Source of the DNA: a virus
Strand: one strand, 5' to 3'
DNA length: 64,000 nt
IMG/VR virus record: IMGVR_UViG_3300037312_000927
The position numbers were made by a program, and so were the translations under genes. Numbering within the stretch: position 1 is the first letter of the stretch; each line of letters opens with the position of its first letter. The notes beneath the pieces were generated by a model, which was given only the letters and a program-made list of their open reading frames with translations, was not told where the DNA came from and ran no database searches. Shown here piece by piece: positions 7,420 to 30,515 of the stretch.

Positions 7420-7440
7420 GTTTATTTTAACGTCGTGTTA

Positions 7441-10720: not shown

Positions 10721-10791
10721 GTGTTAATTCCTTAAAAATATACTCTATTTTAATGCTTGCAATAATACTTACTATTTTACTGCATATTATA

Positions 10792-11589
10792 TCAGCATCC
10801 TACTGGACCTCTATTATCCCCACTAGCTTTAGTCGTAGTAGGTCCACTTACTAGGTTTCCACTGTTATTTCCGGGCATAGCAGCACCCGGTCCATTCGCT
10901 ACTCTATACGAATCTCCATACAGAATTGAAGTCGCATATGCTTGAGGTGTTGAGTTGAACTTATCCATACCTTTACCGAGGTATAGTCCGAATGTAGCCA
11001 TAGTTCGGTTCGAATAAGGCTTAGCTCCGGTAGGCGGATTGCTGACGTAACCCGGTGCTATTTTATATTTATCTTCAAGGATTATAAGTCCCGCTAATAT
11101 CTGGTTAGTTATATTATCAGGACCTAATACCGTATTAATATCAACACCAGGCTCAACTATCAGATCACCCGCCAAATCTGCCCTCATGCGTAAAAGCTCG
11201 CTAGTCCCGTTAGAGTTGGCCCCTTTTATAAGGTACCAGCCAGTGGCCTGCATGAGTCCAAAGCCTGCTACGGAGTTTCTAAGATTAACACGCTCTTGCT
11301 GAGTAGTAGCAGGATTTCTCATTTTCGCTGCTATACTTGGAAATCCTAGGAATTTCTTCAGTTGGGCCTCTCCGTGTATGCCTGAGTTAGCGTTAGGATT
11401 GAACGCACTTTCTTTATAAATACAAGCCATTACTAACTTTGTTATATCCTGTATTGTACCCAAAGTCGATGAAAAATGTTTTTTTATAAGTTCATCAACT
11501 TCAGATCTAATGGCCTGGGCAGAGGAATAAGACTTTGAAATAGCACTAGGTTTACTATTAGATTTTGCTAGCCCTACAGTGGTTGACAT
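10792..11589 (-). CDS. Lytic transglycosylase (SLT/lysozyme-like)
   Basis: ACIYKESAFNPNA (catalytic Glu-Ser) and GFGLMQ motifs. Confidence 0.8.
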   Translation of the reverse strand: MSTTVGLAKSNSKPSAISKSYSSAQAIRSEVDELIKKHFSSTLGTIQDITKLVMACIYKESAFNPNANSGIHGEAQLKKFLGFPSIAAKMRNPATTQQERVNLRNSVAGFGLMQATGWYLIKGANSNGTSELLRMRADLAGDLIVEPGVDINTVLGPDNITNQILAGLIILEDKYKIAPGYVSNPPTGAKPYSNRTMATFGLYLGKGMDKFNSTPQAYATSILYGDSYRVANGPGAAMPGNNSGNLVSGPTTTKASGDNRGPVGC

Positions 11590-13415
11590 TAGTATTTCCC
11601 GTCTGCGCCTTCACCAAACTCTGTGCCCATAATATATGGAGCAATAGGGTCCGTGGAATGAATAGGACTTTCTTCGTGAAAAGATGCGGCTTGAGTAATT
11701 GTATCTTTCAACTTTGCAAAACTTAACTTACTGATCCAATTTTTATCCAGTAACTTAGCAGTCTGTAAACCTGGGACAATAGGAGTAACTCTCAACCTTG
11801 TCGGGCTCACAAAGATCTTAGTGATACCATGATCGGTTAGCTCTTTTACGTGATTAGAGTCTAAGAGCGTGCCCGGGGTCAAATTAAGGATTGGCTTAGC
11901 AAGTATCTTACCTGCACCATCCTCAGTGGAAATTTCACCCTCGGTATGTTGTAGGTATTTTGCAATAGCATTGATCTCTACTTTATCGCCCGGAAGAAAT
12001 GGACTTTCACCCGGATCTGTTACCTGTACATACCGGATCAAATTCTTAGCAATGATCTCAAAGTGACGTGGATCTAAGCCACCGCCGTAAATATTACGAA
12101 GCTCATCTGCCAAATAACGTCTACCTGCACCCATCCCACGAAGAGCTACGAGTTTACGAGGATTAATAACGCCATCGCTCAGTCTATCCCCTTGTAAAAC
12201 ATTGTCGCCTTCTTTGATAACCAGAGGCTGAGAGATGGGTACGAAGTGTTTAATACCATTGACATAGACGTTACTATCACCGAGGCTGGTTGTTTCGATT
12301 TTGTTAACCTTACCGTTCAAGGTAGAAATTGTCGCCTCGTCCTGGAAGTTTTCAGTAGGATTATTCAGAAGATTACTAGCTTGTTGATAGGCGTTACCTC
12401 TACGTTCTCCGACCGTTGCCTTGTGCTTAGTACCAAGCATAGCCTGAGTAAGGACTTCTGACACAGATTGTGCAGCGATAACTCCAACGTTCTCTCCGGT
12501 CTCTGGCATCTTACCATTACCCATCAGTCCATGGCACTTTTTACAGATACCATCTGGCGCTTCACAAGTCATAGAACTACGAACTTTGACTTCTTTTTTG
12601 CCGCTCTGTACAAGTTCATTCAGATAGGCTTCGTCAATGAGTTTATTGGTACGAGCTTCAAATCTACCAAGAACGGCTTTTTTATCGTCTGTTCTCTGGA
12701 TGATACCGTTGCGGGTACCACAGTCATCGATGGTGATAACTTCATGAAAGACGGTAGGAGAAATACGCTTGAATAGGGCTCCAGGAAGGGCTGTGGAGAG
12801 CTGAGACAGCACGGTGCTACCCCTACCCATGTATGACAGCGCAAGAGCCTCAGCGGGGCTCATACCTTCTGCAAACGAGTGTTTGATAACGATAGGGACC
12901 AGATTACCCGACATGTTCGCCGACATCAGTGGAGTAGAGGTTGCAGTACCTAGCTGGGCCGGGTTACCACGGGCGCCAGTTTGAGCCATACGAGCTGCCA
13001 TAGATCCCTTTGGAACAAGGTATTCAAGGTTTTGTTTCTCGATGATTTTGTTGTACTTACCAGTAAGTTCTGCCAAAGCCGAGTTCAGTTGGGTCTTGTT
13101 TTTGATCTTAGACTTGAGATCAGTGACTTTGTAGTCGTATTCCTTAATAATGGCTTGTCTTTCATCACTATCATTGATGTAATCGCTTAGGGGTGTAGAT
13201 GCACCAATCTCATACGCTTTGGTAAAGAACGTCTTTCCAAGATCATTGATAGTTTCGTGGGCTTTATCCCCACCCTTACTCAGCAGCATGTTAACAAGTT
13301 TAGACATACCAGGTTTGTCTAGCACTTGATGAACGTCATATGCTTTTTTCGCTTCTTCAGTAGGCATGGAGTGCTTCAACAGCAGGCTTCCAGCGGTTGT
13401 ATAGTTAGTAGTCAT
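11589..13415 (-). CDS. rpoC: RNA polymerase beta' subunit, C-terminal part
   Basis: Bridge-helix-like FAEGMSPAEAL...STALPGALFKRI; Zn ligands DDCGT, RSSMTC, ICKKCHG; trigger-loop region GENVGVIAAQSVSEVLTQAMLGTKH. Confidence 0.92.
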   Translation of the reverse strand: MTTNYTTAGSLLLKHSMPTEEAKKAYDVHQVLDKPGMSKLVNMLLSKGGDKAHETINDLGKTFFTKAYEIGASTPLSDYINDSDERQAIIKEYDYKVTDLKSKIKNKTQLNSALAELTGKYNKIIEKQNLEYLVPKGSMAARMAQTGARGNPAQLGTATSTPLMSANMSGNLVPIVIKHSFAEGMSPAEALALSYMGRGSTVLSQLSTALPGALFKRISPTVFHEVITIDDCGTRNGIIQRTDDKKAVLGRFEARTNKLIDEAYLNELVQSGKKEVKVRSSMTCEAPDGICKKCHGLMGNGKMPETGENVGVIAAQSVSEVLTQAMLGTKHKATVGERRGNAYQQASNLLNNPTENFQDEATISTLNGKVNKIETTSLGDSNVYVNGIKHFVPISQPLVIKEGDNVLQGDRLSDGVINPRKLVALRGMGAGRRYLADELRNIYGGGLDPRHFEIIAKNLIRYVQVTDPGESPFLPGDKVEINAIAKYLQHTEGEISTEDGAGKILAKPILNLTPGTLLDSNHVKELTDHGITKIFVSPTRLRVTPIVPGLQTAKLLDKNWISKLSFAKLKDTITQAASFHEESPIHSTDPIAPYIMGTEFGEGADGKY

Positions 13416-13452
13416 GGTGTTATTTTAGTTTCACTATATTCGCAGATTTTAC

Positions 13453-13466
13453 ACTATGCACATAGT
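13453..13466. promoter_or_regulatory. Palindromic operator-like site between divergent genes
   Basis: ACTATG-CA-CATAGT; a further CACATAGTT half-site at about 13493. Confidence 0.4.
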
Positions 13467-13467
13467 T

Positions 13468-13478
13468 TTTGGTATAAG
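13468..13478 (+). promoter_or_regulatory. Class B promoter TTTGGTATAAG
   Basis: Recurrent intergenic motif upstream of 13575. Confidence 0.7.
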
Positions 13479-13574
13479 AATTATGCAGTCAACACATAGT
13501 TAACTGCTTAGAACGCAGTACGAAAGTACGAGCATGTTTATATAAGATTTTAATAACCACCCAGAAGGAAAATT

Positions 13575-14204
13575 ATGAATACCCAAACCAATAACGACGC
13601 CACTAACGACCAACTTCAAGGCCCGATGCAGGCAGGTATCCGTAAGGCCAACGATACTCATCACCCCAAGCGTGTTGTCGGCAGAGAGGTCTCGTTGCTG
13701 AATACATCACGGGCTATCTACGAGTTCCTGGAAAAAGAAACGACCGGCACATTGGTTGCGGAACTTCAAGACGCTTTGGAGCCGTTTGGGTACCATGCTG
13801 CTTCGGTTGCAGCTGCGGTAACAAACATGTATAAGGCCGGCATGTTGACCCGTACCCAGAAATCCCCGTATGCCTACATGTGGAATAAGCAGGCTACGCC
13901 GCCGGATACCTCGATGGTCAACATCGTCGTGGCTCCGACTCGGGCACAGCAGAAGGTCAAGGACCGTGCGATCAGGGCGGCACAGGAGGCTGGAGAGAAT
14001 TCTTTGCCGAAACGTCGTGAGGTTGACAAACAATCGACTGAACAGCTCCTCCAGGGTCTGGCTGAAAGTATGGAGAACGGTGATATCCGTAATCTGGAGC
14101 ATAGTGTCCAGTTGATCAAGAATCATCTTGACAGCATTGTTCGTGGGGTCAAGACGGTGCATGCGGTATCTGCAATGATCCGGGCCAACGGCAAGATCGG
14201 GTAA
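13575..14204 (+). CDS. Putative winged-helix DNA-binding protein
   Basis: RAIYEFLEK...TLVAELQDAL...SVAAAVTNMYKAGMLTRTQKSPYAYMWN has wHTH helix/wing spacing; C-terminal coiled coil. Confidence 0.5.
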   Translation: MNTQTNNDATNDQLQGPMQAGIRKANDTHHPKRVVGREVSLLNTSRAIYEFLEKETTGTLVAELQDALEPFGYHAASVAAAVTNMYKAGMLTRTQKSPYAYMWNKQATPPDTSMVNIVVAPTRAQQKVKDRAIRAAQEAGENSLPKRREVDKQSTEQLLQGLAESMENGDIRNLEHSVQLIKNHLDSIVRGVKTVHAVSAMIRANGKIG

Positions 14205-14242
14205 TACCCGGAAAACGAGGCATTGAACCTCGTTTTTTAGCC

Positions 14243-14880
14243 AAGTGTCCAAAAAACTGGACACCTGTCCAAAATTCCAGGACATGTCCAATTTCTATAA
14301 TCTCAGTGATTTATAACGTTTTGGAGCGAAGTGTCCAAGGTGTCCAAAAACGCTAAAAAAAACTGGACACCTATTTCATTTATAAATATTGGTGTTATAG
14401 GCCAAATGTCCAGTTTTTCGCCGTTTTTTGAAAAACATACACCCACCTTTATAAAAAATCTCTCAGAATTTTTGGAAAACTGGTATTTGAAACATTCCGT
14501 TACAAGTCAAGAAACTGCGTCATATTATATATATTTATATATATTTATTATTTATATATTATATATTATATATATAGAGAAGTAATAAACACTGGAGAGA
14601 TAGCTGATTCCATAAAAGTAGATTTGCTGAGGGTAGGGTAGGCTGTGAGAATTTCTCCTCGTTCCTCTCTATAAAGGTCGGTGTATGTTTTTCTAAAAAT
14701 CGCAAAAAACTGGACATTTGAGTTGTAAGCCCAATGTCTACAGTTGAAAGAGGTGTCCAGTTTTATTTTGACCATTTTGGACAATTGGACAGTAGTGTTT
14801 ATACAATCAATATTTGTTGGTATTTTAAGATAAGACACTTTTAAATAAAAATGGACACTTGTCCAAGAAACTGGACACCT
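14243..14880. repeat. Symmetric AT-cored element, copy 1 (origin-like)
   Basis: Non-coding; many TGTCC/GGACA pentamers; internal inverted repeat 14431-14453 vs 14670-14692 (1 mismatch) centred on the AT-only tract at about 14522-14576; inverted copy at 55870-56505. Confidence 0.9.
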
Positions 14881-14898
14881 TTCATTAATCCTCCCATT

Positions 14899-14909
14899 TT
14901 TGGTAAAAG
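14899..14909 (+). promoter_or_regulatory. Class B promoter variant TTTGGTAAAAG
   Basis: One mismatch to the consensus; upstream of 14960. Confidence 0.5.
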
Positions 14910-14959
14910 ATATATGTAGAGCATTATTTTTTTATCAACCTATTTAGAAAGGTAGAAAT

Positions 14960-16213
14960 ATGATCAATCAAAGCGCTGCTCTTGCACACTTCACCGCTAG
15001 TACCGGATTTGTAACTGCCAATATCGGGCGCCAACGGTACATCGAGTCTGCTGAAAACATCCGTGCAAACCTGTCCCGTCGGTCCGGAATCCATACTAAA
15101 TATACTCAAACCGTTATGCCAATTCCAGATGGCAACATGAAACCATCTATCGATATTCTGGTTAAACGTGAAGCTTGGCCTACCGAGTGGATGAACCAAA
15201 TAGGACGTAAAGGTCTAATGACTGAACAATATTCAAAACTCCCCGATGCTGATGTGTACTCTTTCAGATGGATGGACCATGTGGTGAATATGCATCTCGT
15301 TGACGAACTTGAAGCTGCAGGGTTTTACTATAGATATCATGGTATCAGCGAAATTATCAATGAGATTATCAAACCCTTGGATTTCTCTTTTGGTGAGGGA
15401 GGTCTTTCTTTGAATATCGAAGGCTTTGGCCCCAAGCTCTTGAGTTCCAATCCGTCGGTTATCGGGGCAATGATAGGGCTGGACCTCAGCTCGTATTATC
15501 ACGGAGTTAATAATAAGAGGGATATCTGGATTATCCTTGCCCGCATGTCCGTGTACAATAAGAGTACGTTTGCAGCGATTGCGGCAGCTTCTCCTATCTC
15601 TGCTACAGAAAGGCCTCTCCTAGCAGAGTTCGCAGCATATTCAGCGGCATCATCTGATATGATTATGTTCGACCCCAATAAGTACAATGGCCATAATTGG
15701 GCTAATAACTTCCGTAGCCAGTTCCCAGAAATTGTCGGGAAGATTGTTTCGATCAAGGAATCTACCGATTTCAAGAATCTTGTGAAAACGAAGTTTAACG
15801 AAACGATTGTATCCGAAATCACAGGCCTTTCAGGTGAGAACCTTAATCAACTCATGAAGACCTACGTAGATAGCTTCAAGAGTGAAAATGAGTTTAATAC
15901 CTATGTTTTGTCCAGTCTCCCGGACACGGTCAAGACTTCTCTCCTCGATCTTAAGACAAAGCTTTACCCGGACGGGATCCCCACCCCAGCATCAGAACAG
16001 GTAGAACAGGATCCTGTGAAGGAAGAGAAAGCTAAAAGAGTTCGTAAGACTAAGAAGGCCGCAGGAGAAAAGGTGAAGAAGGTTGTAGAAGAGCGGCCTA
16101 AGAAAACCCTTCCGAAGAAAAAGGCTGCTCAAGCCGTAGAAGAAGCGATGGATATTTTGACCCCCATCCCCGCTTCTGACTGGCCTTATCCAGGTCATGC
16201 ACGTCCAGCTTAA
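14960..16213 (+). CDS. Degenerate Pol-beta-type nucleotidyltransferase-like protein
   Basis: IDILV, YSFRW..VVNMHLV, F(S)FGEGGL, FNETIVSEITGLSGENL resemble a phage nucleotidyltransferase family, but the catalytic G-D-x-D and third Asp appear lost; Lys-rich C-terminal tail. Confidence 0.45.
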   Translation: MINQSAALAHFTASTGFVTANIGRQRYIESAENIRANLSRRSGIHTKYTQTVMPIPDGNMKPSIDILVKREAWPTEWMNQIGRKGLMTEQYSKLPDADVYSFRWMDHVVNMHLVDELEAAGFYYRYHGISEIINEIIKPLDFSFGEGGLSLNIEGFGPKLLSSNPSVIGAMIGLDLSSYYHGVNNKRDIWIILARMSVYNKSTFAAIAAASPISATERPLLAEFAAYSAASSDMIMFDPNKYNGHNWANNFRSQFPEIVGKIVSIKESTDFKNLVKTKFNETIVSEITGLSGENLNQLMKTYVDSFKSENEFNTYVLSSLPDTVKTSLLDLKTKLYPDGIPTPASEQVEQDPVKEEKAKRVRKTKKAAGEKVKKVVEERPKKTLPKKKAAQAVEEAMDILTPIPASDWPYPGHARPA

Positions 16214-16233
16214 TCTCCGTTCGTAAGAACGTT

Positions 16234-16261
16234 AAAAACAGGGCTTAACCCCTGTTTTTTA
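16234..16261 (+). terminator. Rho-independent terminator
   Basis: AAAAACAGGG-cttaac-CCCTGTTTTT. Confidence 0.75.
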
Positions 16262-16284
16262 GCTTAATGTGGTAAAATATATTC

Positions 16285-17544
16285 ATGCCAACACTATCAC
16301 ATAACCAAGAAGTACTACTAACTCGTCAAAGACACGAGGCCGAAAGAATGGGCCTACACTTCGATTATCGAATCGTTGTAGGTGACAAAGCTTTTTCATG
16401 GGCAACTAAAAAGGATATGCCGGGCGTTGGCTCGTCTATCATTCTATGGGAACAGCCTGTGCATGATAGTGCATACGCATTGAGTAAAAAAGTCATCATT
16501 CCTACTGGTCAATACGGCGCCGGAGTTACTACTTTGGATTGGGTTAGAAAAGGCACGGTTAACAATCCTGGAGAGGACCCGGAGAAATTCACATTAACCA
16601 CTAAACGTGGAGAACGATATCTCTTCAAGAAGCTTCCTACCAAGTACGGCGAAAAAGCGTGGTTGTTTAAAAATCTAGGATCCATTCAAAACGAATTTCT
16701 AGATAAAACCGCCAGCCTTATAGGAGGAGCTTTAGGTACTCACATAGCTCAAAACATTGCTACCAAAGCTGCTCTGGGGCATAAGGGGATTAGTAGATAT
16801 CTTGCTAACTCGTTCTCGGAAGGCGTCCATGGGGTAGTAAATACCAGTCTAGGTTCTAGGGCTAAAAAATTCCTATCAGGAGCAATTTTACCGGACATTG
16901 CAGTAGCCCACAGGAAAGCCCATGATTTTGGACGTGCTATGAACCCAGTTATATCGATGGCAGACAAGCGGCAAAAGGTTGGGTTACGTATGCTAAGTGA
17001 AGGTAGGATTGAGGACCTTAAAAAGCACAAACTACACCTAGATCCCATCATTCAAAAAGCCCACGGAATAGCTAAGGAACATATGGAAGACTTACCGGCC
17101 CTAGACTCGGTCTTGGATAAAGGTAAATCCATTCAAAAGATATTCAACGATAAAGCTCATCCTCTAGCATCCAATATTTTGAAGAATATTAGTAGGGGTA
17201 ATAAACCGGTAGGTCCTCAGTTTAGACTGGCAGCCCCACGATCTACTCTACCTGTAGTTGGATCATTATCAAGTACCCTAATAGATCCCTCGGGTGGTGT
17301 CATTAACTCTGCCAAGACTTTGATGTCTAGTAAGACTTTTAGTAGCACTAGACTTGGTAAAAAGATAAATGATTCCCTGGAAAAACATCTTGTAGTTAAG
17401 CCTATTAAATCAGGCTTATCAGGAGGAGCGCCTGTTACTAAAAAAGATAAGCTTAAACACACCGCAGCTGAAGTCTTGGTGAATCCGGTGTCTGCAAACC
17501 TAAAAAGAACATCGGCTGCTATCACCGATGCTCTTAAGACCTAA
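16285..17544 (+). CDS. LigD-type DNA 3'-phosphoesterase domain fused to a virion-protein-like domain
   Basis: RQRH-x6-LHFDYR...SWA...PVH-x3-Y...GQYGAG matches the LigD PE motif (H,H,D,R,H,Y); followed by NEFLDKTASL and glycine-rich helices. Confidence 0.8.
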   Translation: MPTLSHNQEVLLTRQRHEAERMGLHFDYRIVVGDKAFSWATKKDMPGVGSSIILWEQPVHDSAYALSKKVIIPTGQYGAGVTTLDWVRKGTVNNPGEDPEKFTLTTKRGERYLFKKLPTKYGEKAWLFKNLGSIQNEFLDKTASLIGGALGTHIAQNIATKAALGHKGISRYLANSFSEGVHGVVNTSLGSRAKKFLSGAILPDIAVAHRKAHDFGRAMNPVISMADKRQKVGLRMLSEGRIEDLKKHKLHLDPIIQKAHGIAKEHMEDLPALDSVLDKGKSIQKIFNDKAHPLASNILKNISRGNKPVGPQFRLAAPRSTLPVVGSLSSTLIDPSGGVINSAKTLMSSKTFSSTRLGKKINDSLEKHLVVKPIKSGLSGGAPVTKKDKLKHTAAEVLVNPVSANLKRTSAAITDALKT

Positions 17545-17684
17545 TTCTTTTTATCCCCGAATCTTACGGTAGTGACTTTAATTGCTAGCGCCGCCACTAA
17601 TGTACAGAACACTATCGGATGCTCTTCGAAGTACACGAATATAGGATTTGTGTAATAACTCAGATAGAATAGTGCAGTATCCAT
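17541..17684 (-). CDS. Small membrane protein (47 aa), not in the ORF track
   Basis: MDTALFYLSYYTNPIFVYFEEHPIVFCTLVAALAIKVTTVRFGDKKN; SD AAGGAG and a class B promoter upstream; stop overlaps the stop of 16285-17544. Confidence 0.75.
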   Translation of the reverse strand: MDTALFYLSYYTNPIFVYFEEHPIVFCTLVAALAIKVTTVRFGDKKN

Positions 17685-17712
17685 TATAAACTCCTTTATA
17701 TATGGTGTATAT

Positions 17713-17723
17713 CTTATACCAAA
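17713..17723 (-). promoter_or_regulatory. Class B promoter TTTGGTATAAG (minus strand)
   Basis: CTTATACCAAA on the plus strand; about 30 nt upstream of the 17684 ATG. Confidence 0.7.
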
Positions 17724-17748
17724 ATTGGGGTATCTAACTTAGAATAAT

Positions 17749-18192
17749 ATGAATAAATATTTAGAAAAAATTGCAAATTGGCATGAAGTAGAACCTGGGC
17801 TACACTATGACTACTCTAGTGGACGTTACCATATATCTCAAGATAAAGAAAACTCCATTAACTCTACTCTAGATAAACGACACGTTACTGCAGGGGCAAA
17901 AGTTTTTGGAGGACTGGGCGCTGTAGGGTTAGGTGGACTAGGGTTAGCAGTAGGGGAACGATCTATATTCGGTGCTCCTAGAAACCTATCTCATAGGTTA
18001 TCACGTGGACTACGAGGAGCAATTATAGGTGGTGGATTGGGAGCTGCGACTGGAGCCTTATTAGCCCAAGGCGGTAATAACCAGGTCCATGCAAGTGGTA
18101 GAACTTTAGAACGCAGGTTACATAGTGAAATTGCCTCAAGAGCAGGAGATTATAGAAGAACTACGGCATATCAAATGCTTAATGGTGATTAA
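17749..18192 (+). CDS. NKYLEKIA-leader protein with glycine-zipper hairpin
   Basis: MNKYLEKIAN; GLGAVGLGGLGLAVG and GAIIGGGLGAATGALLA. Confidence 0.7.
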   Translation: MNKYLEKIANWHEVEPGLHYDYSSGRYHISQDKENSINSTLDKRHVTAGAKVFGGLGAVGLGGLGLAVGERSIFGAPRNLSHRLSRGLRGAIIGGGLGAATGALLAQGGNNQVHASGRTLERRLHSEIASRAGDYRRTTAYQMLNGD

Positions 18193-19112: not shown

Positions 19113-19114
19113 AG

Positions 19115-19143
19115 AAAAAGCCCGGAATTAACCGGGCTTTTTT
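19115..19143. terminator. Bidirectional terminator between convergent genes
   Basis: AAAAAGCCCGG-aattaa-CCGGGCTTTTT. Confidence 0.85.
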
Positions 19144-21049
19144 ATAGCTTCCTAAACATATTTCTAAAATAATGTTTTAGTTTTTCAGGACCTGAACCAT
19201 TAATATTTAACAATAAAGACTTGCCAGTTAAGTATAATCCCCCGGTACCTAGTTCTAGTTCCCTGAATAACATATTAGTTACCGTTTTCAAATCAACAAT
19301 GAAATTGGCTGATGTCACTCCTAACTGCCTCCCTAATTTACCCTGAGATTCACCAGAACCTATTACATACTCAGTAGAGCCTAGACTCATTTTTCTAGAA
19401 TTTGTAGTTGATATAGGATTCCCATTTAGGTAGTACTCACCGGGTACTACATTAAACTCTGTAGAAAACTTAGAGATAACCCCGCTATACGATAAATTGT
19501 ATTCTCCCGCATAGATATATAAATCCCTTACAACAGGCCCTCCGGAGCCAGGATTTTGATTGTATTCTAGTATACTTGAGTAAGGATTTACGGAGAACGA
19601 ACCCTTTGATATCTGCAGAAGTCTATTTAAAGACTGGGTTAAGCCGCTACCCGATAGTACTACAGAACCCGTGCCAGTTTTTAACGCTGAAGCTAGATTT
19701 AATTTAGTGTTATTAGAAACTAACGTAAATCCTGCATATTGGGCGTTGAAGGAATATCCTCTGAAAAACCCTACCGAGTTAGTACCGGTAGTAAAAGTAC
19801 CACTAGATAGATTCTTAAGTAGAGATCTTGTAAAACCCGTAGCACTACCTGTTATGGAGAAAGATCTAGAGCTAGTTACTAAAGTCTTCCCTGCAAAAAA
19901 ACCTACTGACGAGGGGTTTATACCAAATGCCGACGAACTGACAGTCAGATTTCTATTTAAATATAGATTAGAATTTAAGTACTGAGCAACAACTGTTCCA
20001 ACTATGCCTACAAGTTTTCTATTAAAGAAGACACTTGCATTTATACTACTTAAATTTAAACTCCCCGTATTACCATATATATTTCTACTTACATTCAGAT
20101 TAGGATTGATAGCTAGTAAATTATAACTTCCCGTATTTAAACTTAGAAGTTTATTCAAATTTAATGCTACGGGTTCTCCAATTAAAGACATGGAGTAACT
20201 AGTCAACCCTAGTCTAGGACCATATGATAATTTGGCCTGAATTTGGGATAAGCTAAATCCGTATTGAGTTGCGTTTAGAGTATATGAAGAACTAGATACT
20301 GGTAAAAATAGCCTTAGGTTTTTAGATAATGAGGTATCCCTGAATAATTGCCAGGGATTATCAGCTAGAGACTTCATCTCAGCGTCTGTGAGGGATCTAC
20401 TCCAGCCTATTACCAGGCTTAGATTTCCTGTAGTCCAAGCTTGAGCTTGAGTTGAAGTTCCATTAGTTTTTCTACAACCTATCCAGAAAGTTCCGCTAGG
20501 GCCACGGGGTGCCCCAGCAGTCGTGGATGCAGCAGTCTTAGAACCATTTTGGAAAATTGCTGTACTAGACGGAGAACATACCGCACCCATGGTAAAACCC
20601 CGTGCAACGTCCGTAGAGGACATAGCTGTTGGGGAAATAACCTGTCCAGTTGTCGTAGAATCATTAAAAAATGGGATAAACTCAACTTTTCCTGAGTTTA
20701 TACGAAACTGGAATCTTCTATTTCCGGTCGCACTATCATCATCATCAATAGAACTCTGTATACCAGAGGTAGTGCCGGTCCCATAGGCGAATAAACTATA
20801 AGTATTCGTAGTAATGGAGGTACTGCCGGTATCTATTATACGAGTCAGAGATGAACTGGCCTTTGTACCCAGTCCGATAGGAGTTGAATTTGACGTACCC
20901 GCTACGAAAGGGGTTTGCACAGGTTTTGTAGAAATAAAACCTGCTGCCCCACTACCACCTAAAACATAGATAAAAGCTATACCAGCCGTAATAGGATTTG
21001 TTAAGTCTAGCTGAAGTCTTCCCTGAGGCTGGTACCGCATCATTGCCAT
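19142..21049 (-). CDS. Tail fibre/receptor-binding-like protein (LamG-like N-domain plus Ser/Gly/Leu repeats)
   Basis: 635 aa; beta-sandwich-like N-terminus (FWIG...WSRSLTDAEM..L..NPWQLF); repeated GS-x2-L-x-G-x5-L-x3-R-x-L units. Confidence 0.55.
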   Translation of the reverse strand: MAMMRYQPQGRLQLDLTNPITAGIAFIYVLGGSGAAGFISTKPVQTPFVAGTSNSTPIGLGTKASSSLTRIIDTGSTSITTNTYSLFAYGTGTTSGIQSSIDDDDSATGNRRFQFRINSGKVEFIPFFNDSTTTGQVISPTAMSSTDVARGFTMGAVCSPSSTAIFQNGSKTAASTTAGAPRGPSGTFWIGCRKTNGTSTQAQAWTTGNLSLVIGWSRSLTDAEMKSLADNPWQLFRDTSLSKNLRLFLPVSSSSYTLNATQYGFSLSQIQAKLSYGPRLGLTSYSMSLIGEPVALNLNKLLSLNTGSYNLLAINPNLNVSRNIYGNTGSLNLSSINASVFFNRKLVGIVGTVVAQYLNSNLYLNRNLTVSSSAFGINPSSVGFFAGKTLVTSSRSFSITGSATGFTRSLLKNLSSGTFTTGTNSVGFFRGYSFNAQYAGFTLVSNNTKLNLASALKTGTGSVVLSGSGLTQSLNRLLQISKGSFSVNPYSSILEYNQNPGSGGPVVRDLYIYAGEYNLSYSGVISKFSTEFNVVPGEYYLNGNPISTTNSRKMSLGSTEYVIGSGESQGKLGRQLGVTSANFIVDLKTVTNMLFRELELGTGGLYLTGKSLLLNINGSGPEKLKHYFRNMFRKL

Positions 21050-21050
21050 A

Positions 21051-21422
21051 TTAAACTCCCGTTATAGCTTGTAGGTATGCCTCTACCGTAACTGGTTGAA
21101 CCGTATTTGCGTATGCTATGATTCTTACATACATAACTCCTACATCCAGCTGGATAGTAGAGCTATAGATACTGGAATTGACAGTATCTCCACTAGCGGT
21201 GTAGTAATCATACCAATTAGTACCATCCATAGATGTTTGAAAAGTAATGGAAATAGCTACCGTAGGGGCCGTTGCTCCATTAGTAATTTTATATACTAAA
21301 TCTCCACCGTAGTAGGATCTGCAATCTATAGAGGTCCCCGAGAGGGGAGCACTTTTAGTATAAGTACCGGCAGAGACTGAAGTGGAGGCTAGTAAAGTAA
21401 CTGAAGTTTTAGTTATTGCCAT
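21051..21422 (-). CDS. Tail-associated beta-sandwich protein
   Basis: 123 aa, Thr/Ser-rich, FQTSMDGTNWYD, YVRI. Confidence 0.5.
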   Translation of the reverse strand: MAITKTSVTLLASTSVSAGTYTKSAPLSGTSIDCRSYYGGDLVYKITNGATAPTVAISITFQTSMDGTNWYDYYTASGDTVNSSIYSSTIQLDVGVMYVRIIAYANTVQPVTVEAYLQAITGV

Positions 21423-21844
21423 TATTTTTCTGATCCATCATCGTTGAACATAATATTTGATATTTCCTGAGCAGAATATTCGTAGGATTCCATACCTAAA
21501 TCGCATATGGCATCTGCCTGTTCCTGGGTTAATACAGCGGGCACAAATGCTTGAACTGCGGCTTGTGCCTCAGGAGCCCCTATCAGGAATCTACCAGTTT
21601 CAAGTAAAGGGCGAACATATCTGTATACATCATTAGAATTTATAACATCAAGAAATGCACTCCCTACGGTTATCCCTAGTACTTGTAGAATTCTACCATT
21701 ACCAATTTCATAATCCGTAGGGCGTTTAAGCCCCACGGACATGATTTTAGCTATAGTGAACGGATCTTTTGCCGTAATATAAGGTGCGCAATCAGGGTTC
21801 GCCTTTATCGCATTCCTTAGATTAATCTCTTCTTCAGACGTCAT
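21422..21844 (-). CDS. Hypothetical protein of the tail-fibre cassette
   Basis: 140 aa, overlapping start/stop with its neighbour. Confidence 0.6.
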   Translation of the reverse strand: MTSEEEINLRNAIKANPDCAPYITAKDPFTIAKIMSVGLKRPTDYEIGNGRILQVLGITVGSAFLDVINSNDVYRYVRPLLETGRFLIGAPEAQAAVQAFVPAVLTQEQADAICDLGMESYEYSAQEISNIMFNDDGSEK

Positions 21845-21856
21845 AAGATTACCTTA

Positions 21857-22276
21857 TTAAGTTAGTGTCAACACGCCATTAGTTTGATCAAAGTTCACAT
21901 TCAAGGAATCGCCATCATTTAATGTCAATGCCGTTCCATAATCATAAAAACCTATGAGATTACCGGAGGCAGGGGTACTATTAGCAACTACTACATAGCG
22001 GAAAGGTCCCACAGCTCCACCCGTAGCAGTTAGAGTAGTGTTTGCAATTACCAGCTTGTAAACACCTCCTGTTTGCGCCGAAGAAGTTACGGTGAGATTA
22101 CGGGATGAACAGTTTGTATACGTAATCTGGGTAATATCAGAAGTAACCGAACTTCCAGATGCAGTAGGTGCAGTATTAGTCAGTAGTAAAACTAGTTGGT
22201 CATTTTGAAGATTGTGAACTTTTTCAGCAAGAGCTTCAGTAAATGCATTGAATTTTTGAAAAGTAGCGGTAGCCAT
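21857..22276 (-). CDS. Conserved phage tail-cassette protein
   Basis: 139 aa; MATATFQKFNAFTEALAEKVHNL...GPFRYVVVAN...LIGFYDYG pattern typical of virion proteins next to fibre genes. Confidence 0.55.
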   Translation of the reverse strand: MATATFQKFNAFTEALAEKVHNLQNDQLVLLLTNTAPTASGSSVTSDITQITYTNCSSRNLTVTSSAQTGGVYKLVIANTTLTATGGAVGPFRYVVVANSTPASGNLIGFYDYGTALTLNDGDSLNVNFDQTNGVLTLT

Positions 22277-22320
22277 TATTTAGTCTTTCTTTAAAAAGGT
22301 ATTTCTTATTTATATTACCG

Positions 22321-23007
22321 TTATATCCATCTAAATTTAGGATTACCGGTCATTGCTGTTACATAGAGTCTTTGGCCTCCTGCCAGGTTTTCATCCCAGT
22401 TTGGACCTGTAGTAATGCCAGATATAGTAAAAGTACTAGGAGGTGGTGATTGTGGCTGTGAACTTGAAATGGTGAAAGTCAAACTATCATTTTCACTCAG
22501 ATAAAGTCGCACGCCAGTAGCATTGTCAGGTGGAATTCCTAGAAGAGCCCCGTTAGGTGTAGAAGTAGGCACATCTAACAAATCTCCTATACCTACTACC
22601 GCAGCCACCTTTAATACTTCGTCCCCTAATGTGGGGAATCCGCTAGAATTTGGGCTCAACCCACTACGGATAATAGTAGATAACCCTTTATACATTAATT
22701 TTGTGGTACCAGATGGGAACGTGATATACAATCCGTAAGAGCCTGAACCCCAGTTCGTATTAAGGACGGATAACCACGGGATATGGACATCAACAGTTCC
22801 CAGAATACCTCCCACTACAACGTTACTACTAGTAGACGAATTAAATATAATGGGTGTAGTTAGATATTCAAATTTTATTGTAATGTAAGCCGTAGCATTA
22901 GTAAGGTCTAAAGGTAAGCCCGTAGAGCTATCAGTACATTCGAAAGTTTGATAAAAATCAAGACCTTCTTCAATTTCTAAATTAAGAGTTTGAGTTACAA
23001 AAGCCAT
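22321..23007 (-). CDS. Baseplate upper protein (BppU-like Ig domain) candidate
   Basis: LEIEEGLDFYQTF...PLDLTNATAYITIK...YGLYITFP. Confidence 0.5.
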   Translation of the reverse strand: MAFVTQTLNLEIEEGLDFYQTFECTDSSTGLPLDLTNATAYITIKFEYLTTPIIFNSSTSSNVVVGGILGTVDVHIPWLSVLNTNWGSGSYGLYITFPSGTTKLMYKGLSTIIRSGLSPNSSGFPTLGDEVLKVAAVVGIGDLLDVPTSTPNGALLGIPPDNATGVRLYLSENDSLTFTISSSQPQSPPPSTFTISGITTGPNWDENLAGGQRLYVTAMTGNPKFRWI

Positions 23008-23011
23008 CGTA

Positions 23012-24184
23012 TCATCCTATTGTGATTGGGGTATTTTCTTTAATAGTCCCATCCTTCAGGGCTTTCAAAGCTTCAAGTTCAGTTTTAAAATGCACTGGTT
23101 CCTGGGTCATATCCGGCTGAGTCATATGAACACTGCCGATAATAGCTTCGTGGCCAGGTGCAACCATACTGCTGTTCAACCCTTTACGATAATCGTGAAT
23201 GTGGTGTTCTGGCAGAAGTTTAGTCCTAGCTTCCAAAACCGCTTCAGGTGTCATCGGTACTTGCAGGGTAAGCGCGTCACCATCGTAGTCACCTGCGTAT
23301 AGTGGTAGGTGCAAAGGGTTAATACCGATAGTTTTACCCTTAATAGGCACTGGGTAGTGAGCGGTAATGTTAGTTCTCATCAGGGTAGGTGCACGGTTTA
23401 GCAGCACTGGAATCTGTTTGATGAGTTTGTTAAAACTCGCCCTAGCTGCAGGACTTCTTTCTGCAACTGCTCGCTTAGCACTTACGTAGTCGTAACCTTG
23501 TCTGACCAGGTCTCGGGTAATATGGAAAGCGTATGTTACCCAAATCATGTCTTCAGGGATAGCGGCTTCGTTAAACCCTAGATTAGGCTCAGCATAAATA
23601 GTGCCTCGTCCTGAGAAGTCCAGTTTCTTACTTAGCAGCTTGCTATGGAAGAAACCTTGCTTAGGACCGGAAGTACCTGAGATCTGGCGGATATAACCCT
23701 TCAAATTCTTACCACGGCTTGAACCTGAGATTGCGTCTCCGAGTCCAAAAATAGCTTTGGCACCGTCGTATAGGGCTTTTCTCTCAGCTACCATCATATC
23801 GTCCGTCATGTAGTCTTTAATTCCTTTAAAGGACTCATTAACGGTCATGTGGTCTTTATAAAGCTCGTTGGCATCAGCATATTCGATGTTATTATTACCC
23901 ATAATGGTAATAGGTCGAGCTAGCGGAGGGGCCACCGGCATATGCCTAATGATGAACGCTTCATCTGGCTGTAATTCATTCTTGATTAACCCATCTACAT
24001 ACTTCAATTTCTTGATAAGCGTATCCCTTTTACTAGGGCTTTTAGTAGACAGAATTTCATCTTTCAGGCTTTTTGCTTGAGCTTGAAGATTTACACGGGA
24101 TAACATTTCCTCCAAGGCAGGACCACCTACCTTTAGGATGCCTGGATCCACTGATGTATTTTTATTCGCAGTTGAAGTAGTCAT
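23012..24184 (-). CDS. rpoC: RNA polymerase beta' subunit, middle (catalytic) part
   Basis: MPVAPPLARP, LLSKKLDFSGRGTI, VLLNRAPTL, catalytic YAGDYDGD (three Asp of NADFDGD retained). Confidence 0.93.
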   Translation of the reverse strand: MTTSTANKNTSVDPGILKVGGPALEEMLSRVNLQAQAKSLKDEILSTKSPSKRDTLIKKLKYVDGLIKNELQPDEAFIIRHMPVAPPLARPITIMGNNNIEYADANELYKDHMTVNESFKGIKDYMTDDMMVAERKALYDGAKAIFGLGDAISGSSRGKNLKGYIRQISGTSGPKQGFFHSKLLSKKLDFSGRGTIYAEPNLGFNEAAIPEDMIWVTYAFHITRDLVRQGYDYVSAKRAVAERSPAARASFNKLIKQIPVLLNRAPTLMRTNITAHYPVPIKGKTIGINPLHLPLYAGDYDGDALTLQVPMTPEAVLEARTKLLPEHHIHDYRKGLNSSMVAPGHEAIIGSVHMTQPDMTQEPVHFKTELEALKALKDGTIKENTPITIG

Positions 24185-24219
24185 GATAATAGTTTAACTC
24201 TCGGCTATATTTGAATATT

Positions 24220-24244
24220 AAAAAACCCGGACTAGCCGGGTTTT
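24220..24244. terminator. Terminator hairpin between RNAP genes
   Basis: AAAAAACCCGG-acta-GCCGGGTTTT (imperfect stem). Confidence 0.65.
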
Positions 24245-24253
24245 ATTTTAAGC

Positions 24254-27200
24254 TTACGCTTCCTCGTGTTCCTCGGGCTCCGGATCATCCACGTGGTCAA
24301 CAAGGCTGCTTACCCTTGTATCTATCACCTTCAGCTTTTTGCCACTGCTGGTATCGTGGAGATGGAAAATGCCGTCCTTAACATGAGTGATACCGATAGA
24401 TCCTTGAACAATACCTGTATACTCTTTAGTATTCAGGCCTAGTAGGCTCTTGATAGGTCTTTCGAAAGCCGGGTTAGCAATCGGTTCAGCCAATCTGTAG
24501 TGAGTCCATTTGGTTCCTCGGATACCTCCGGTAAGAGCACTGTCAAACAACCCGCCCTTTTCAGGTTCCAGATTCTTGGCATTAAGTCTGGTAGGTTCTT
24601 TAATTTCACCATTACTCATCTCCATGATATCTCTATCAGTTAACGGGCTAGCAGTGATATTACCTTTATCAAACGAGGTCTTGATGCCACTCGCAGTTAG
24701 ATAGTTGAAGAACTTTTCAGTCGCAAAGGTCGTCTTAGGCTTCGGGAGAGGCTGACCAGTTAAGAACTTCTTCCAGTAGTCACTATTCTCTTCACTCTTC
24801 AGTGTTGTAATCTCTTTAAGATTCTTACGGGCATCTGAACCGAGCAAACCAAGCATCTCCATGTAACCGACACTCTTGGAACCTTCTTCGCCACCCTTAG
24901 TAGGTTGCATCGTATTATCATAGGCGCCGACGTTACGAGCACTCCAGTTTTGGTCAGAGGTCTTATAAAGCTTAATCATGTACTGAGGCCCAGTTAGGAT
25001 CTTGCCTAATTCCTTGCCAGTTTTCGGATCCACAAACACTTCACTATCTTCTATGCCGTGGCTCTTAAGCTCTTTGTTAATATCTACAATGTTAGAATTC
25101 TTCGAGAAATTGTGAATTCTATAAGGTTGCCCCGTCTTCTGAGCAATTTTACCAGCTGCGGTCTCCATCAGCTGACCCAGATTAATACGGCTGGTAACTG
25201 ATGCAGGGTTCAATAGAATATCCGCAGGTTTACCGGTTTCCTTGTTGAATGGCATTTCATGATCTTCCAGAATCAGCGAAACGATACCTTTGTTACCATG
25301 CATACCTGTTAGTTTATCGCCGACTTCTAGTTCCTTGACACTACGGATCAGGATGCGAATTGCTTTACCTTCGGTATGGGCGTCGACTACTACACCAGGC
25401 TCATCGTGGTGCCAGACCTCTGTAACGGCTCTATATGGGTTCACGAGGTTCTTATGGAGTCTACCTAGCATCTTGTCTTCAGGAGTTGGTTCACGCTTCT
25501 CTAGGACGATATAGACGGGATCTCCGTTAACAAGCTTAGTGCCGATCAGCGGGAATCCTTTATCATCCAGTTTTTCAAGTTGCTCTTTAGTGAACTTGCC
25601 CGGGAAATAACGAGGGATTAGGCTCTTCTTCAACAGAGTTGTAGGCTGTACATCATAGTCAACTTTATAAGCATGGTGGCTGCTCAGGCTTTGAGCACAA
25701 CTTCTGCTAATAACAAGTCCATCCTCGTGGTTATAACCCTTATATGGCATGTACGCTACTTGAAGGTTTTTACCTAGAGCCAGTACGCCGTCTTTGGTGT
25801 AATTGTTATCAACAAGTACTTGTCCAGCTTTTATCTTATCGCCGACTTTGACCAGAGGATGTTCATCATCATAGAAACCCTTCATATTAAACGGAAGATT
25901 TTTAACCAAGGTGATGGTGTGGTCTTTACCGCTTTCATCAGTTAGTACGATAGCTTTGTTCGTGATCGATTTCACAGTACCGTTGACTGGCGAAGTAGTT
26001 TGAGAAATGACTTTAGCCAGAGTTTCAACGAAGGCTCTACCGTGTTCATCTACAGTTCTGACCAGAGGTGCTTCACGGTCTACCAGAGACAGCGCTTGTG
26101 GAATAGCCTTACCTGCCATGGTTAGGCGACCCGGATGGTTGCTGTTAAGGAACGGTACAAGATTAGTTGTAACCGTGTACAAGTCCGTAGCACTATTCAG
26201 CCAGTAATCGACTTTTGAAGCAGGAACTTCTCCTAGTTCACCTTTGATTTGAGCCTGGACAATATTCTTACCTTCTTGGTTAGGAAAACCGATTATGGAG
26301 TTCATCACTTCACCAACACTCAAGTAGACTTCCTTACCGTTCTTATCTTTCATACGTGCGTACAGATTACCTGCTTTGTCACGATGAGCTGCAATGGTGA
26401 AGCGTTGGTCAATACCAGCGTGGCCCGATTCCGGAGTACGGGATGGGTCAAGGATACCTAAGTGGGATGGATCAATATCTCGGGCGCTCATAGGGACGCC
26501 GCGATCTGAACTGATACCACCTTCCAGGCCACCAAGCACAGTTACCTTACCAACGTTTTCCAGTGACTCGATCGGGTTAGTTTCACTAGGAGTGGTAACC
26601 AGGTTTGATTCGATGATGTAGCTGGAGAACAGTTTGTTGAAGGGTTTACTGGCCACCGATCCACGGATTTTAATAGGCTGACCACTTTTCTCCGCTTTAT
26701 CCAAAGCATAGGTAATACGGCTCTTAAGCGTGGATGTTAAAAGCTTCTCTTTCTTGAAACGGGTTTCCAGAAAGTCTGGCAGGTTCTGAACAGCTTTAAA
26801 CTGCAGAGAGTCTCGGTTATCTTCAGGCTTACGACCGGCGTGAACTTCAACAAGGTTATGCAGAGCCAGCAGCACCGCTTCATGCGTTACCGTGGCTAAG
26901 GGCTTACCGAGAGTGATCTTAGTCGTGTTGACGTTCAACTGAGAGTTTTCAAGAGCGAGACGCAGAGCTGCGATCTTTTCTTCTAGAGTGTTAGCTGGAG
27001 TCTTACGAGTAGTCAGGCGAGTGTATAGATCATTGATGATCTTCTCTTCTTTACCCGAGGTAGCCTTGAGGTTATCGTTCCAAACCGATTCAGGGATGTA
27101 CATCGATACTTCTTTAGGGCCAACGCCGAAAACCCTGGATAGCAAAGGCGCCAGAGGGATGCGGCTAGATGCCACTTCGACATAAAACATACCCGTCTGG

Positions 27201-27667
27201 GGTTCTAGAGTAATGGCAAAGCTTCTACCTGAGCCAGTATTCAAGTGTGCTTCAAGTTCTCCTGTTTCACGGGAGCGGGTATACACTCCTGGACGGAGCT
27301 GAAGCTGGTTAGCAGCAGCATAATTACTCCCTTTATACAGCAAAGTGCTTTTGCCAGTTAAATAAAAAGAGTCCATCAGGTTAAAATTCGCCTGCTTGTC
27401 TATGACATTACCGGTTACGTTATCAGTAAGCGTTAGGGTTCCCGTAATAGGGTAAGTCAAGGATCTCCCTTCAAGGATAGCTTTTTTCTCGTCCTCGTGA
27501 GTATATTCAATTCTTTTAGCATGAACGTCTGACAGGCTTAAAGTGTACTTTTTTGTGGATATAGGGAACTGGAGGGTAAGACCATTAATGAGAGCTTGAT
27601 CGACCCTATCATTAGTCTGCTTGGGTGAACTAAAAATAGGAGTTAATTCTTGTGCAGTTGCTGGCAT
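24254..27667 (-). CDS. rpoB: RNA polymerase beta subunit fused to the beta' N-terminal segment
   Basis: beta motifs TPESGHAG, LGKNLQVAYMPYKGYNHEDG, GDKLTGMHGNKG, NPASVTSRINLGQ; the tail SNGEIKEPTRLNAKNLEPEKGGLFD...THYRLAEP matches the start of bacterial beta'. Confidence 0.93.
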   Translation of the reverse strand: MPATAQELTPIFSSPKQTNDRVDQALINGLTLQFPISTKKYTLSLSDVHAKRIEYTHEDEKKAILEGRSLTYPITGTLTLTDNVTGNVIDKQANFNLMDSFYLTGKSTLLYKGSNYAAANQLQLRPGVYTRSRETGELEAHLNTGSGRSFAITLEPQTGMFYVEVASSRIPLAPLLSRVFGVGPKEVSMYIPESVWNDNLKATSGKEEKIINDLYTRLTTRKTPANTLEEKIAALRLALENSQLNVNTTKITLGKPLATVTHEAVLLALHNLVEVHAGRKPEDNRDSLQFKAVQNLPDFLETRFKKEKLLTSTLKSRITYALDKAEKSGQPIKIRGSVASKPFNKLFSSYIIESNLVTTPSETNPIESLENVGKVTVLGGLEGGISSDRGVPMSARDIDPSHLGILDPSRTPESGHAGIDQRFTIAAHRDKAGNLYARMKDKNGKEVYLSVGEVMNSIIGFPNQEGKNIVQAQIKGELGEVPASKVDYWLNSATDLYTVTTNLVPFLNSNHPGRLTMAGKAIPQALSLVDREAPLVRTVDEHGRAFVETLAKVISQTTSPVNGTVKSITNKAIVLTDESGKDHTITLVKNLPFNMKGFYDDEHPLVKVGDKIKAGQVLVDNNYTKDGVLALGKNLQVAYMPYKGYNHEDGLVISRSCAQSLSSHHAYKVDYDVQPTTLLKKSLIPRYFPGKFTKEQLEKLDDKGFPLIGTKLVNGDPVYIVLEKREPTPEDKMLGRLHKNLVNPYRAVTEVWHHDEPGVVVDAHTEGKAIRILIRSVKELEVGDKLTGMHGNKGIVSLILEDHEMPFNKETGKPADILLNPASVTSRINLGQLMETAAGKIAQKTGQPYRIHNFSKNSNIVDINKELKSHGIEDSEVFVDPKTGKELGKILTGPQYMIKLYKTSDQNWSARNVGAYDNTMQPTKGGEEGSKSVGYMEMLGLLGSDARKNLKEITTLKSEENSDYWKKFLTGQPLPKPKTTFATEKFFNYLTASGIKTSFDKGNITASPLTDRDIMEMSNGEIKEPTRLNAKNLEPEKGGLFDSALTGGIRGTKWTHYRLAEPIANPAFERPIKSLLGLNTKEYTGIVQGSIGITHVKDGIFHLHDTSSGKKLKVIDTRVSSLVDHVDDPEPEEHEEA

Positions 27668-28316
27668 TATATTCTTCTATGTCAAATTTATTGTATTTTG
27701 TTCTGTTCTCGAACCTAGATATGACGCGTAGGTTCTCGTGCACATGTAGGCCTGATACTAATTCACCCTTTAAGGGTATTATGTGATCAACCTCATGAGG
27801 TATCCCTGTCTCGGAACTCGTCTTTTCGCATAATTCATAGGTATCTTTAATTTTAGTTTCATCAGCCCATTTAGGGGTTCTTAGAAGTATCTCTGCACGT
27901 CTTTTGGTAGCCCTTATTTTATAAGGCACTGGATTTTTATAGTAATTAACTAAGGCCCACTTACGTACCTTATCTGAATTTTTCTTAGAATAATCCTTAG
28001 ATTTATCACACGAACACTTCATACAGGAATGGTCGGTCACTTGTCTTTCACTAAGATGACCCTTATGACAGGGGACTCCGGTGTAATATCGAGTCTTGCC
28101 TTGAGCTATAGCTGCGTCCCGGGTAATTATCCTAGGATCCGCATAGAGTTTTAGTCTAAGCTCGGTACCTTTTATACCTTCTTTTCTATAATGGCACCCT
28201 ACACAATTTTTGCTTACGGTGAACCTTTCGGATACATGCCCACGTTTGCACGGCTTACCTGTAAAGTATCTTTTAAGGCCTTTTTCCAAGGCCTCGTCCC
28301 TACTTAGGATTTCCAT
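27630..28316 (-). mobile_element. Free-standing HNH homing endonuclease gene
   Basis: Two EAL-x-KG-x-KRYFTG-x-PC-x2-GH repeats; HEVDHIIPL...VSGLHVHENL. Confidence 0.8.
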
Positions 28317-30438: not shown

Positions 30439-30472
30439 TTATATAGTCCTTACGTAGAATATCGTTCCCTTA

Positions 30473-30501: not shown

Positions 30502-30515
30502 TTTTAACCTTTAAA

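Follow-up and report, generated by a model that had tools for sequence, protein, structure and literature searches.

How is a bacterial-type RNA polymerase encoded when its two large subunits are joined at one place and cut at two others? The question is raised by a stretch of 64,000 nucleotides (hereafter the window) from IMG/VR virus record IMGVR_UViG_3300037312_000927, which belongs to an uncultured phage with a genome of about 185 kb. Bacterial RNA polymerase is thought to need an alpha dimer for the assembly of beta with beta', and omega for the folding of beta'. A first-pass annotation of the window had recognized three polymerase genes, one of them a fusion of beta with the first segment of beta'. 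Our analysis indicates that these three genes very likely encode the catalytic core of a single bacterial-type phage RNA polymerase, divided into beta fused to beta' ~16-170 (beta::beta'N1), beta' 178-~550 (beta'N2) and beta' ~565 to the end (beta'C).

All three open reading frames (ORFs) were found where they had been annotated, on the minus strand. The gene at 24254-27667 encodes a protein of 1137 aa (P0001), in which residues 1 to ~1003 form a complete beta and residues ~1006-1122 correspond to beta' ~16-170 (E. coli numbering) with the zinc finger absent, followed by an acidic tail at residues 1123-1137 (DDPEPEEHEEA). The beta'N1 segment, located by the alignment and the model described below at 24302-24652 (minus strand), is the clamp's N-terminal part, from which a zinc-binding domain of 32 residues has been deleted. 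A spacer of 69 nt (24185-24253) separates this gene from the beta'N2 gene at 23012-24184, whose product of 390 aa (P0002) is equivalent to E. coli beta' 178-~550 and carries the clamp helices and the catalytic AGDYDGD loop. The beta'C gene (11589-13415; P0003, 608 aa) lies ~9.6 kb from the N2 gene. Pfam searches matched P0001 to Rpb2_6 (E 1e-63) and also to Rpb2_2 and Rpb2_3, P0002 to Rpb1_2 (E 1e-16) and to profile positions 157-267 of Rpb1_1, and P0003 to Rpb1_5 (E 1e-15). The catalytic motifs are intact: GDKLTGMHGNKG in the beta barrel of P0001 (a Lys-rich loop, GDK..G.HGNKG), AGDYDGD in P0002, and the bridge helix and trigger loop in P0003, whose translation also contains the F-loop and a second zinc site (C...C-x6-C-x2-C) and has no SI3 insertion. 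The earlier assignment of the DYDGD motif to the second gene, and of the bridge helix and trigger loop to the distant third, was thus borne out by both motifs and profiles.

The C-terminus of P0001 aligned with the N-terminus of beta', as the proposed fusion implies. Bacterial beta chains from PDB matched residues 77-1035 (E 1e-66), the alignment ending at about residue 1035 at most. When the last 159 aa were searched alone against PDB sequences with phmmer, only beta' chains were matched, over beta' residues ~16-55 (best E 3.6e-4). The end of P0001 also aligned by blastp with residues 4-66 of Salmonella RpoC (E 1e-4), and positions 10-50 of the Pfam profile Rpb1_1 matched it (E 8e-4). In a 99%-identical strain from IMG/VR, Rpb1_1 read across the gene boundary matched over positions 10-267 with 44.6 bits, above the Pfam cut-off and with four TAA codons inside, showing that a single Pfam domain is written over two genes. 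Alignment of the phage relatives with RpoC in MAFFT equated P0001 996-1051 with RpoC 12-67 and P0001 1052-1082 with RpoC 100-130. The residues in between (RpoC 68-99, 32 residues with the zinc-finger cysteines C70, C72, C85 and C88) were deleted in 9/9 phage sequences aligned, in agreement with the absence of these cysteines remarked on in the first-pass annotation.

Structural comparison placed the same segment in the same part of the enzyme. An AlphaFold model of P0001 760-1137 had a mean predicted local distance difference test (pLDDT) of 80.6, with 86-93 in the N1 part and ~42 in the last 17 residues, and was compared with 48,161 PDB chains using VIA-align. Model residues 1-243 matched the C-terminal end of beta (6j9e_C 1097-1382, Z 10.0). 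Model residues ~249-368 matched an archaeal clamp (Z 4.9, root-mean-square deviation 2.0, 83 aligned), M. tuberculosis beta' 14-294 (Z 4.1, 116 aligned), plastid beta' 14-177 (Z 3.7) and residues 19-90 of Pol I and Pol II (Z 3.7-4.3). The Z-scores for N1 are modest, and a Foldseek search with the beta-plus-N1 model returned beta chains only, so that N1 matches came only from the wide VIA-align search; yet 5/5 of those matches fell on the same part of the largest subunit, and unrelated matches were below Z 3. P0001 is therefore a whole beta that runs without a linker into beta' at residue ~16.

The two cuts in beta' were mapped by alignment of the remaining chains. Residues 17-357 of P0002 matched E. 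coli beta' 178-516 in phmmer (E 1e-44), which places the first cut at beta' ~165-177. In blastp, P0003 28-331 aligned with RpoC 592-936 and P0003 389-535 with RpoC 1187-1332, placing the second cut at beta' ~552-590. A single residue of P0002 aligned with position 178 of E. coli beta' and position 256 of mycobacterial beta'; mycobacteria thus carry ~78 extra residues before it, and the first cut falls in a variable region, where differing sequence is tolerated. The large insertion of Thermus beta' falls in this region too. The first break lies just upstream of a conserved GGxA helix, and P0002 begins with a polar extension of 14 residues. As the first-pass annotation had suggested, the cut points differ from those of phiKZ-type enzymes, beta being in one piece and covalently joined to the N-terminus of beta'.

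The origin of the first cut became apparent from relatives. A megablast search of phage records with 12 kb of the window gave no match. A tblastn search of GenBank phages found Salmonella phage Arash (OQ632216; polymerase gp206 and gp216, sigma gp10 and gp196) and Vibrio phages D69, D148 and D181, all three parts being 51-54% identical. Both gp206 of Arash (1525 aa) and VPHD69_0261 of D69 (1527 aa) hold beta, N1 and N2 in a single ORF. Their beta'C is a separate gene that follows downstream at a distance of 4.7 kb in Arash and of 0.6 kb in D69, compared to 9.6 kb in the window. The best 120 clusters of the protein at 90%-identity clustering (63-84% identical; from assemblies of JGI, ENA, NCBI and Logan, on contigs as long as 188 kb) were 1113-1178 aa long, except for a few that were truncated and one that was fused (P0107, 1501 aa), so that about 115 of the 120 have the form of ~1137 aa. 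In relatives, the N2 gene (383-394 aa) was found 73 nt, 233 nt, 2.1, 3.5, 8.1 or ~12 kb from the beta::N1 gene, and the intervening stretch holds tail-fibre-like, head-decoration and peptidase genes. A homing-endonuclease insertion as the cause of the fission is unsupported, because the genes between the two pieces are virion genes and not endonucleases.

A FastTree phylogeny of the beta part (126 rows) placed the fused forms at the base (the L014 group, Arash with D69, and P0126) and the split forms in one clade of 117, with the fused P0107 nested beside P0105 and P0114. To explain this nesting, two events are needed: a fission and a re-fusion, or else fission twice at one site. The acidic tail was present in 95/117 split proteins (median of 7 Asp/Glu in the last 15 residues) and in none of the fused forms. 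In the distant fused relative L014, a model of residues 963-1477 (pLDDT 92.5) forms one body that superimposes on E. coli beta' 16-551 (Z 22-24, ~450 residues). The three-gene layout is thus a derived fission of an ancestral beta::beta'N gene that is kept in Arash and D69, and the beta/beta' fusion noted at first pass is the remnant of a larger fusion that received an extra cut in the phage of the window.

To survey the wider family, P0002 was compared by phmmer with 1.84 billion representative proteins, yielding 1178 clusters at E <= 1e-30. Among the best 150 of these 1178 clusters, 97 were beta::N1N2, 19 were complete single chains, 8 were N1N2, 3 were N2::C and 1 was N1N2C; the other 22 were N2-only proteins, many of them fragments. 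In distant clusters, N2 or N2::C proteins that look complete (P0138, P0192, P0151 and P0215) start no more than 25 residues before the GGxA motif, which hints, from sequence comparison, that the site close to GGxA is a recurrent break point of beta'.

Three further features of this gene family were observed. A three-stranded hairpin module of ~40 residues that precedes the split site (GIFHLHDTSSGKKLKVID in the window) is present in Arash, D69 and the split clade, and is lacking in L014 (9560-11104) and its relatives P0134 and P0135. The first ~15 residues of P0001 (27623-27667; MP....EL.PIFSSP) are conserved to Arash, D69 and most of the clade despite an overall identity of ~50%, and could be a packaging or assembly signal. 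In Vibrio phage D181 (L026), a group I intron (4033-4313; RF00028, 100.7 bits, E 1e-26) lies in the beta::beta'N gene after ~515 codons and is followed by a homing-endonuclease ORF (4327-4944); the D181 record annotates the exons as separate hypothetical proteins, and the sister phage D69 has no intron.

If the three chains form one polymerase, which other subunits accompany them? As proxies for the full genome we used the complete genomes of Arash and D69, and G006, an IMG/VR relative with the same split (168 kb, 92% complete). No match to alpha (PF01000, PF01193) or omega (PF01192) was obtained at E<=1 in Arash, D69, G006 and five partial relatives, with 14/14 controls matched. Arash, D69 and G006 each contained one Rpb2_6 match, one beta' set (a single Rpb1_2) and one or two matches to sigma-70 region 2. 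A full beta' N-terminal gene elsewhere in the genome would argue against the fusion, and no separate gene of this kind was found in G006, Arash or D69. The window itself contains a sigma-70-family gene (44955-45961, minus strand) in two putative exons, of which exon 1 (45572-45961) matched Pfam Sigma70_r2 (E 6e-8) and r1.2 and exon 2 (44955-45380) matched Sigma70_r4 (E 4e-7). Its product is presumed to be the promoter-specificity subunit of the polymerase.

The Arash/D69 enzymes share with the window the seamless junction of beta to beta' ~16, the same zinc-finger deletion, a separate beta'C, a position after the portal gene and a small ORF, a gene of ~620 aa after beta'C, their own sigma, and no detected alpha or omega. 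They differ in that beta and beta' 16-~550 are one protein of ~1525 aa, which in the window is cut after ~170 into 1137 and 390 aa with the acidic tail added. In the paper on Arash, gp206 is labelled beta and gp216 is labelled beta-prime, and there is no mention of the fusion (PMC10585845). Polymerases of the phiKZ/AR9 type are likewise two-barrel phage enzymes without alpha or omega, their beta' is also cut between the catalytic barrel and the bridge helix, and one of their sets is packaged in the virion (PMC7598289, PMC7824862). The modelled beta barrel matched jumbo-phage structures in VIA-align (7S00_C, Z 8.3; 7OGP_C, Z 7.1). In the phiKZ/AR9 type, however, beta is in two or three chains and is not fused to beta', gp68 or gp226 takes the place of sigma, and there are usually two paralogous sets, whereas the enzyme of the window has a whole beta fused to the N-terminus of beta', a sigma-70 factor and, judging from relatives, a single set. 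P0001 is far closer in sequence to bacterial beta (the E 1e-66 given above) than to the jumbo-phage PHROG families (E 1e-10 to 1e-32).

Natural rpoB-rpoC fusions occur in Helicobacter and Wolbachia, where the C-terminus of beta is joined to the N-terminus of beta'; the two ends are adjacent and fusion is tolerated. Those fusions are full-length beta-beta' with a linker, an intact zinc finger, alpha and omega, whereas the junction in the window leaves out roughly 15 residues at the start of beta' together with the zinc finger, and two cuts divide the rest of beta'. The split beta' of cyanobacteria and plastids (gamma/RpoC1 and RpoC2) also divides into an N-chain with DYDGD and a C-chain with the bridge helix and trigger loop. 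P0002, however, ends opposite gamma ~549-560 of 624-626, some 65-75 residues before the gamma/beta' boundary, and in cyanobacteria beta is separate and alpha and omega are present. The literature describes phiKZ/AR9-type split enzymes, crAss-like and YonO-like single chains, and a clade from metagenomes in which beta and beta' are separate; we found no described phage beta::beta'N fusion of the present type (PMC10585845, PMC7824862, PMC13282480 and PMC7481178 were among the sources). The enzyme of the window is a further-split variant of a widespread phage multisubunit polymerase with a non-canonical subunit partition.

The location of the genes bears on when and where the polymerase would act. 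The block that contains them is headed by the portal gene (28612-30438, minus strand; PHROG portal families, E 1e-11), and with the prohead protease gene at 3714-5204 this puts the polymerase genes inside the virion block. The first-pass annotation had them directly behind the portal; they are among virion genes, but a conserved small ORF of 98 aa that adjoins the portal gene (28316-28612, position conserved) and a free-standing HNH homing endonuclease gene (27630-28316, minus strand; PHROG endonuclease VII and HNH families, E 2e-21) intervene. The HNH gene sits between the small ORF and the beta gene, overlaps the start of beta by 38 nt, and is not at this place in L010, L011 and L013. Arash and D69 likewise have portal, small ORF and beta in this order. 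The earlier suggestion that the enzyme could be packaged in the virion receives outside support from mass spectrometry of Arash virions, in which gp206 had the highest count of all (3516 spectra), followed by two structural proteins, the major capsid protein (1333) and gp216 (1210), with sigma gp10 at 467 (PMC10585845). The authors of that study noted that these proteins could be either injected enzymes or abundant contaminants (PMC10585845). Taking these observations together, we consider that the polymerase is probably packaged in the virion.

Several other readings of the locus were weighed. One is that the split reflects faulty assembly or sequencing, or that a recent mutation inactivated polymerase genes that are now decaying. 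This could be entertained for a single metagenomic assembly, which can hold errors, particularly as the nearest cultured relatives have an unbroken gene. We give this practically no credence: more than 110 independent clusters (JGI, ENA, NCBI, Logan) end at the same place, the second, 99%-identical strain has the same spacer, no catalytic motif has been lost, the 63-84% identity of the split clade extends over the full length and points to purifying selection, and most split forms have gained a tail. Another possibility is that P0001 and P0002 are rejoined as one beta::beta'N protein, whether by stop-codon read-through, by a suppressor tRNA, by ribosomal hopping, by intron splicing or by a split intein. 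The two ORFs share a reading frame, as 27667-24184 is a multiple of 3, and the corresponding gene of Vibrio phage D181 does contain a group I intron. The spacer, however, reads TAA GCT TAA ... TAA ... TAA before the ATG, and its four in-frame stops, including the one at 24254-24256, are all TAA and none TAG, on which ground we rejected read-through or suppression. Splicing of an intron was rejected on account of length, 69 nt being too short, and because no Rfam intron family was found in 11000-31000. A split intein was rejected in turn, since no intein motifs are present at the ends and the upstream end is the disordered acidic tail (pLDDT ~42), the downstream start being the 14-residue polar extension. 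In relatives, moreover, 2-12 kb of protein-coding virion genes stand between the two genes. Rejoining is therefore very unlikely.

A more serious alternative accepts the three-chain polymerase as real but holds that it is not packaged, being made only late or throughout infection and acting as a middle or late intracellular enzyme while host polymerase redirected by the phage sigma starts the infection. On this reading the location among virion genes reflects co-expression, and the Arash structural proteome of 116 proteins, which includes metabolic enzymes, is not a stringent list (PMC10585845). The polymerase set is single, whereas phiKZ-type phages with a packaged polymerase have a second, non-virion set as well, and the motif TTTGGTATAAK (15 sites vs 1.9 expected), which drives plus-strand genes, resembles an extended -10 element of a kind that could be read by a host-type holoenzyme. 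Set against these points are the Arash spectra, with gp206 above the major capsid protein and gp216 and sigma gp10 also high (PMC10585845), and the link between portal and beta, whose conservation extends over Vibrio phages, Salmonella phages and the uncultured clade. We regard this alternative as unlikely, if by no means negligible.

We favor a model in which the three chains assemble without alpha or omega. The covalent junction between beta and beta' would do the tethering that in bacteria falls to the alpha dimer and omega, and the beta'N1 stub on beta would be a docking surface for beta'N2, with the clamp completed from three polypeptides. The polymerase would work with the sigma-70-type factor that the phage itself encodes. 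Produced late, along with the virion genes, the enzyme would be packed into the capsid and injected, and would then transcribe early phage genes without host polymerase. Some points weigh against this model. The absence of alpha, omega and a second polymerase rests on relatives that are 50-70% identical, and a very divergent substitute for alpha or omega could escape the Pfam models. The split clade has no cultured member, and the hairpin and T run ahead of the N2 gene call for a promoter of its own, for which TTAAAATA is a candidate. The list of 116 Arash proteins includes ribonucleotide reductase (PMC10585845), so that carry-over of abundant infected-cell proteins is possible. The most inclusive form of the model, a self-sufficient, sigma-dependent virion enzyme lacking alpha and omega in which the junction is a scaffold, the clamp is modular, the tail is functional and the split site is recurrent, appears to us possible rather than probable. 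In that form beta'N2, with its sigma-binding clamp helices and catalytic loop, may be a separately expressed subunit that sits on the beta'N1 stub, and the acidic tail, given its presence in 95/117 split proteins, may have a function of its own, for example as a DNA mimic that holds the packaged enzyme away from the genome before injection, or as a packaging signal.

The rifampicin pocket was also compared with that of E. coli. Six positions differ (Q513T, F514T, D516S, H526N, R529K and S531T), and three of the six changes are at classical resistance positions, so that insensitivity to rifampicin is expected; from its sequence, the polymerase is probably insensitive to the drug.

How the separated genes might be expressed is suggested by motifs around them. 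The spacer between the P0001 and P0002 genes contains a GC-rich hairpin with a 9-bp stem (24244-24222; AAAACCCGG-CTAGT-CCGGGTTTT) followed by a T run, resembling a terminator. With this hairpin and T run in between, the second gene would need a promoter of its own. The motif TTAAAATA lies at 24251-24244. YTAAAATA was found upstream of minus-strand virion and polymerase genes (24244-24251, 13421-13428, 10746-10753, 7423-7430 and 30471-30478); 8/9 copies are on the minus strand, in short intergenic regions, and in relatives L008-L013 only 4-8 nt separate the motif from the ATG that follows it in the N2 and beta'C genes. Counts of TTAAAATA and YTAAAATA in the window were not above chance (6 vs 4.5 and 9 vs 9.2 expected, respectively), so that the support for them is in strand bias and position only. 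YTAAAATA may be a T4-like late promoter, possibly with leaderless or near-leaderless mRNAs. The TTTGGTATAAK sites, nearly all on the plus strand and ahead of non-virion genes (13468, 30516, 31112, 31471, 36852, 39095, 44179, 47435, 54705, 56522, 61842, 62690 and others), are a second promoter class, similar to an extended -10 element.

Some neighbouring genes deserve mention. Downstream of beta'C is a conserved gene of 624 aa (8846-10720, minus strand), which by tblastn is 29% identical to gp218 of Arash (E 2e-76) and 28% identical to D69_0266 of D69 (E 5e-59). It is syntenic downstream of beta'C in Arash, where gp218 is called a structural protein and was detected in virions, in D69 and in L009. 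The protein had no Pfam or PHROG match, and it is a candidate polymerase-linked virion protein. The HNH gene beside beta has a paralogue at 46042-46554 that adjoins the sigma gene (36-66% identity over segments), so both transcription genes have a mobile endonuclease neighbour. Between the N2 and beta'C genes, amid minus-strand virion genes, lies a plus-strand block (13575-19112) that includes an ATP-dependent DNA ligase (18192-19112; PHROG 114, E 1e-20). It also includes a protein in which a LigD-type 3'-phosphoesterase domain was matched (16285-17544) at E 2e-6, short of the Pfam cut-off.

These results have practical and biological consequences. Proteins of these phages that are annotated as beta hold part or half of beta', and their annotation should be corrected. 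At ~2135 residues in three chains, the enzyme is a compact sigma-dependent polymerase for structural and synthetic work, and the positions at which its relatives are divided constitute a natural map of tolerated cut sites in the clamp. The cultured phages Arash and Vibrio phage D69 make host-independent early transcription testable in phages below jumbo size. More broadly, this phage family appears to dispense with alpha and omega through a beta-beta' fusion, and the split clade has cut the fused chain at a new place with the enzyme still under selection in more than 100 lineages.

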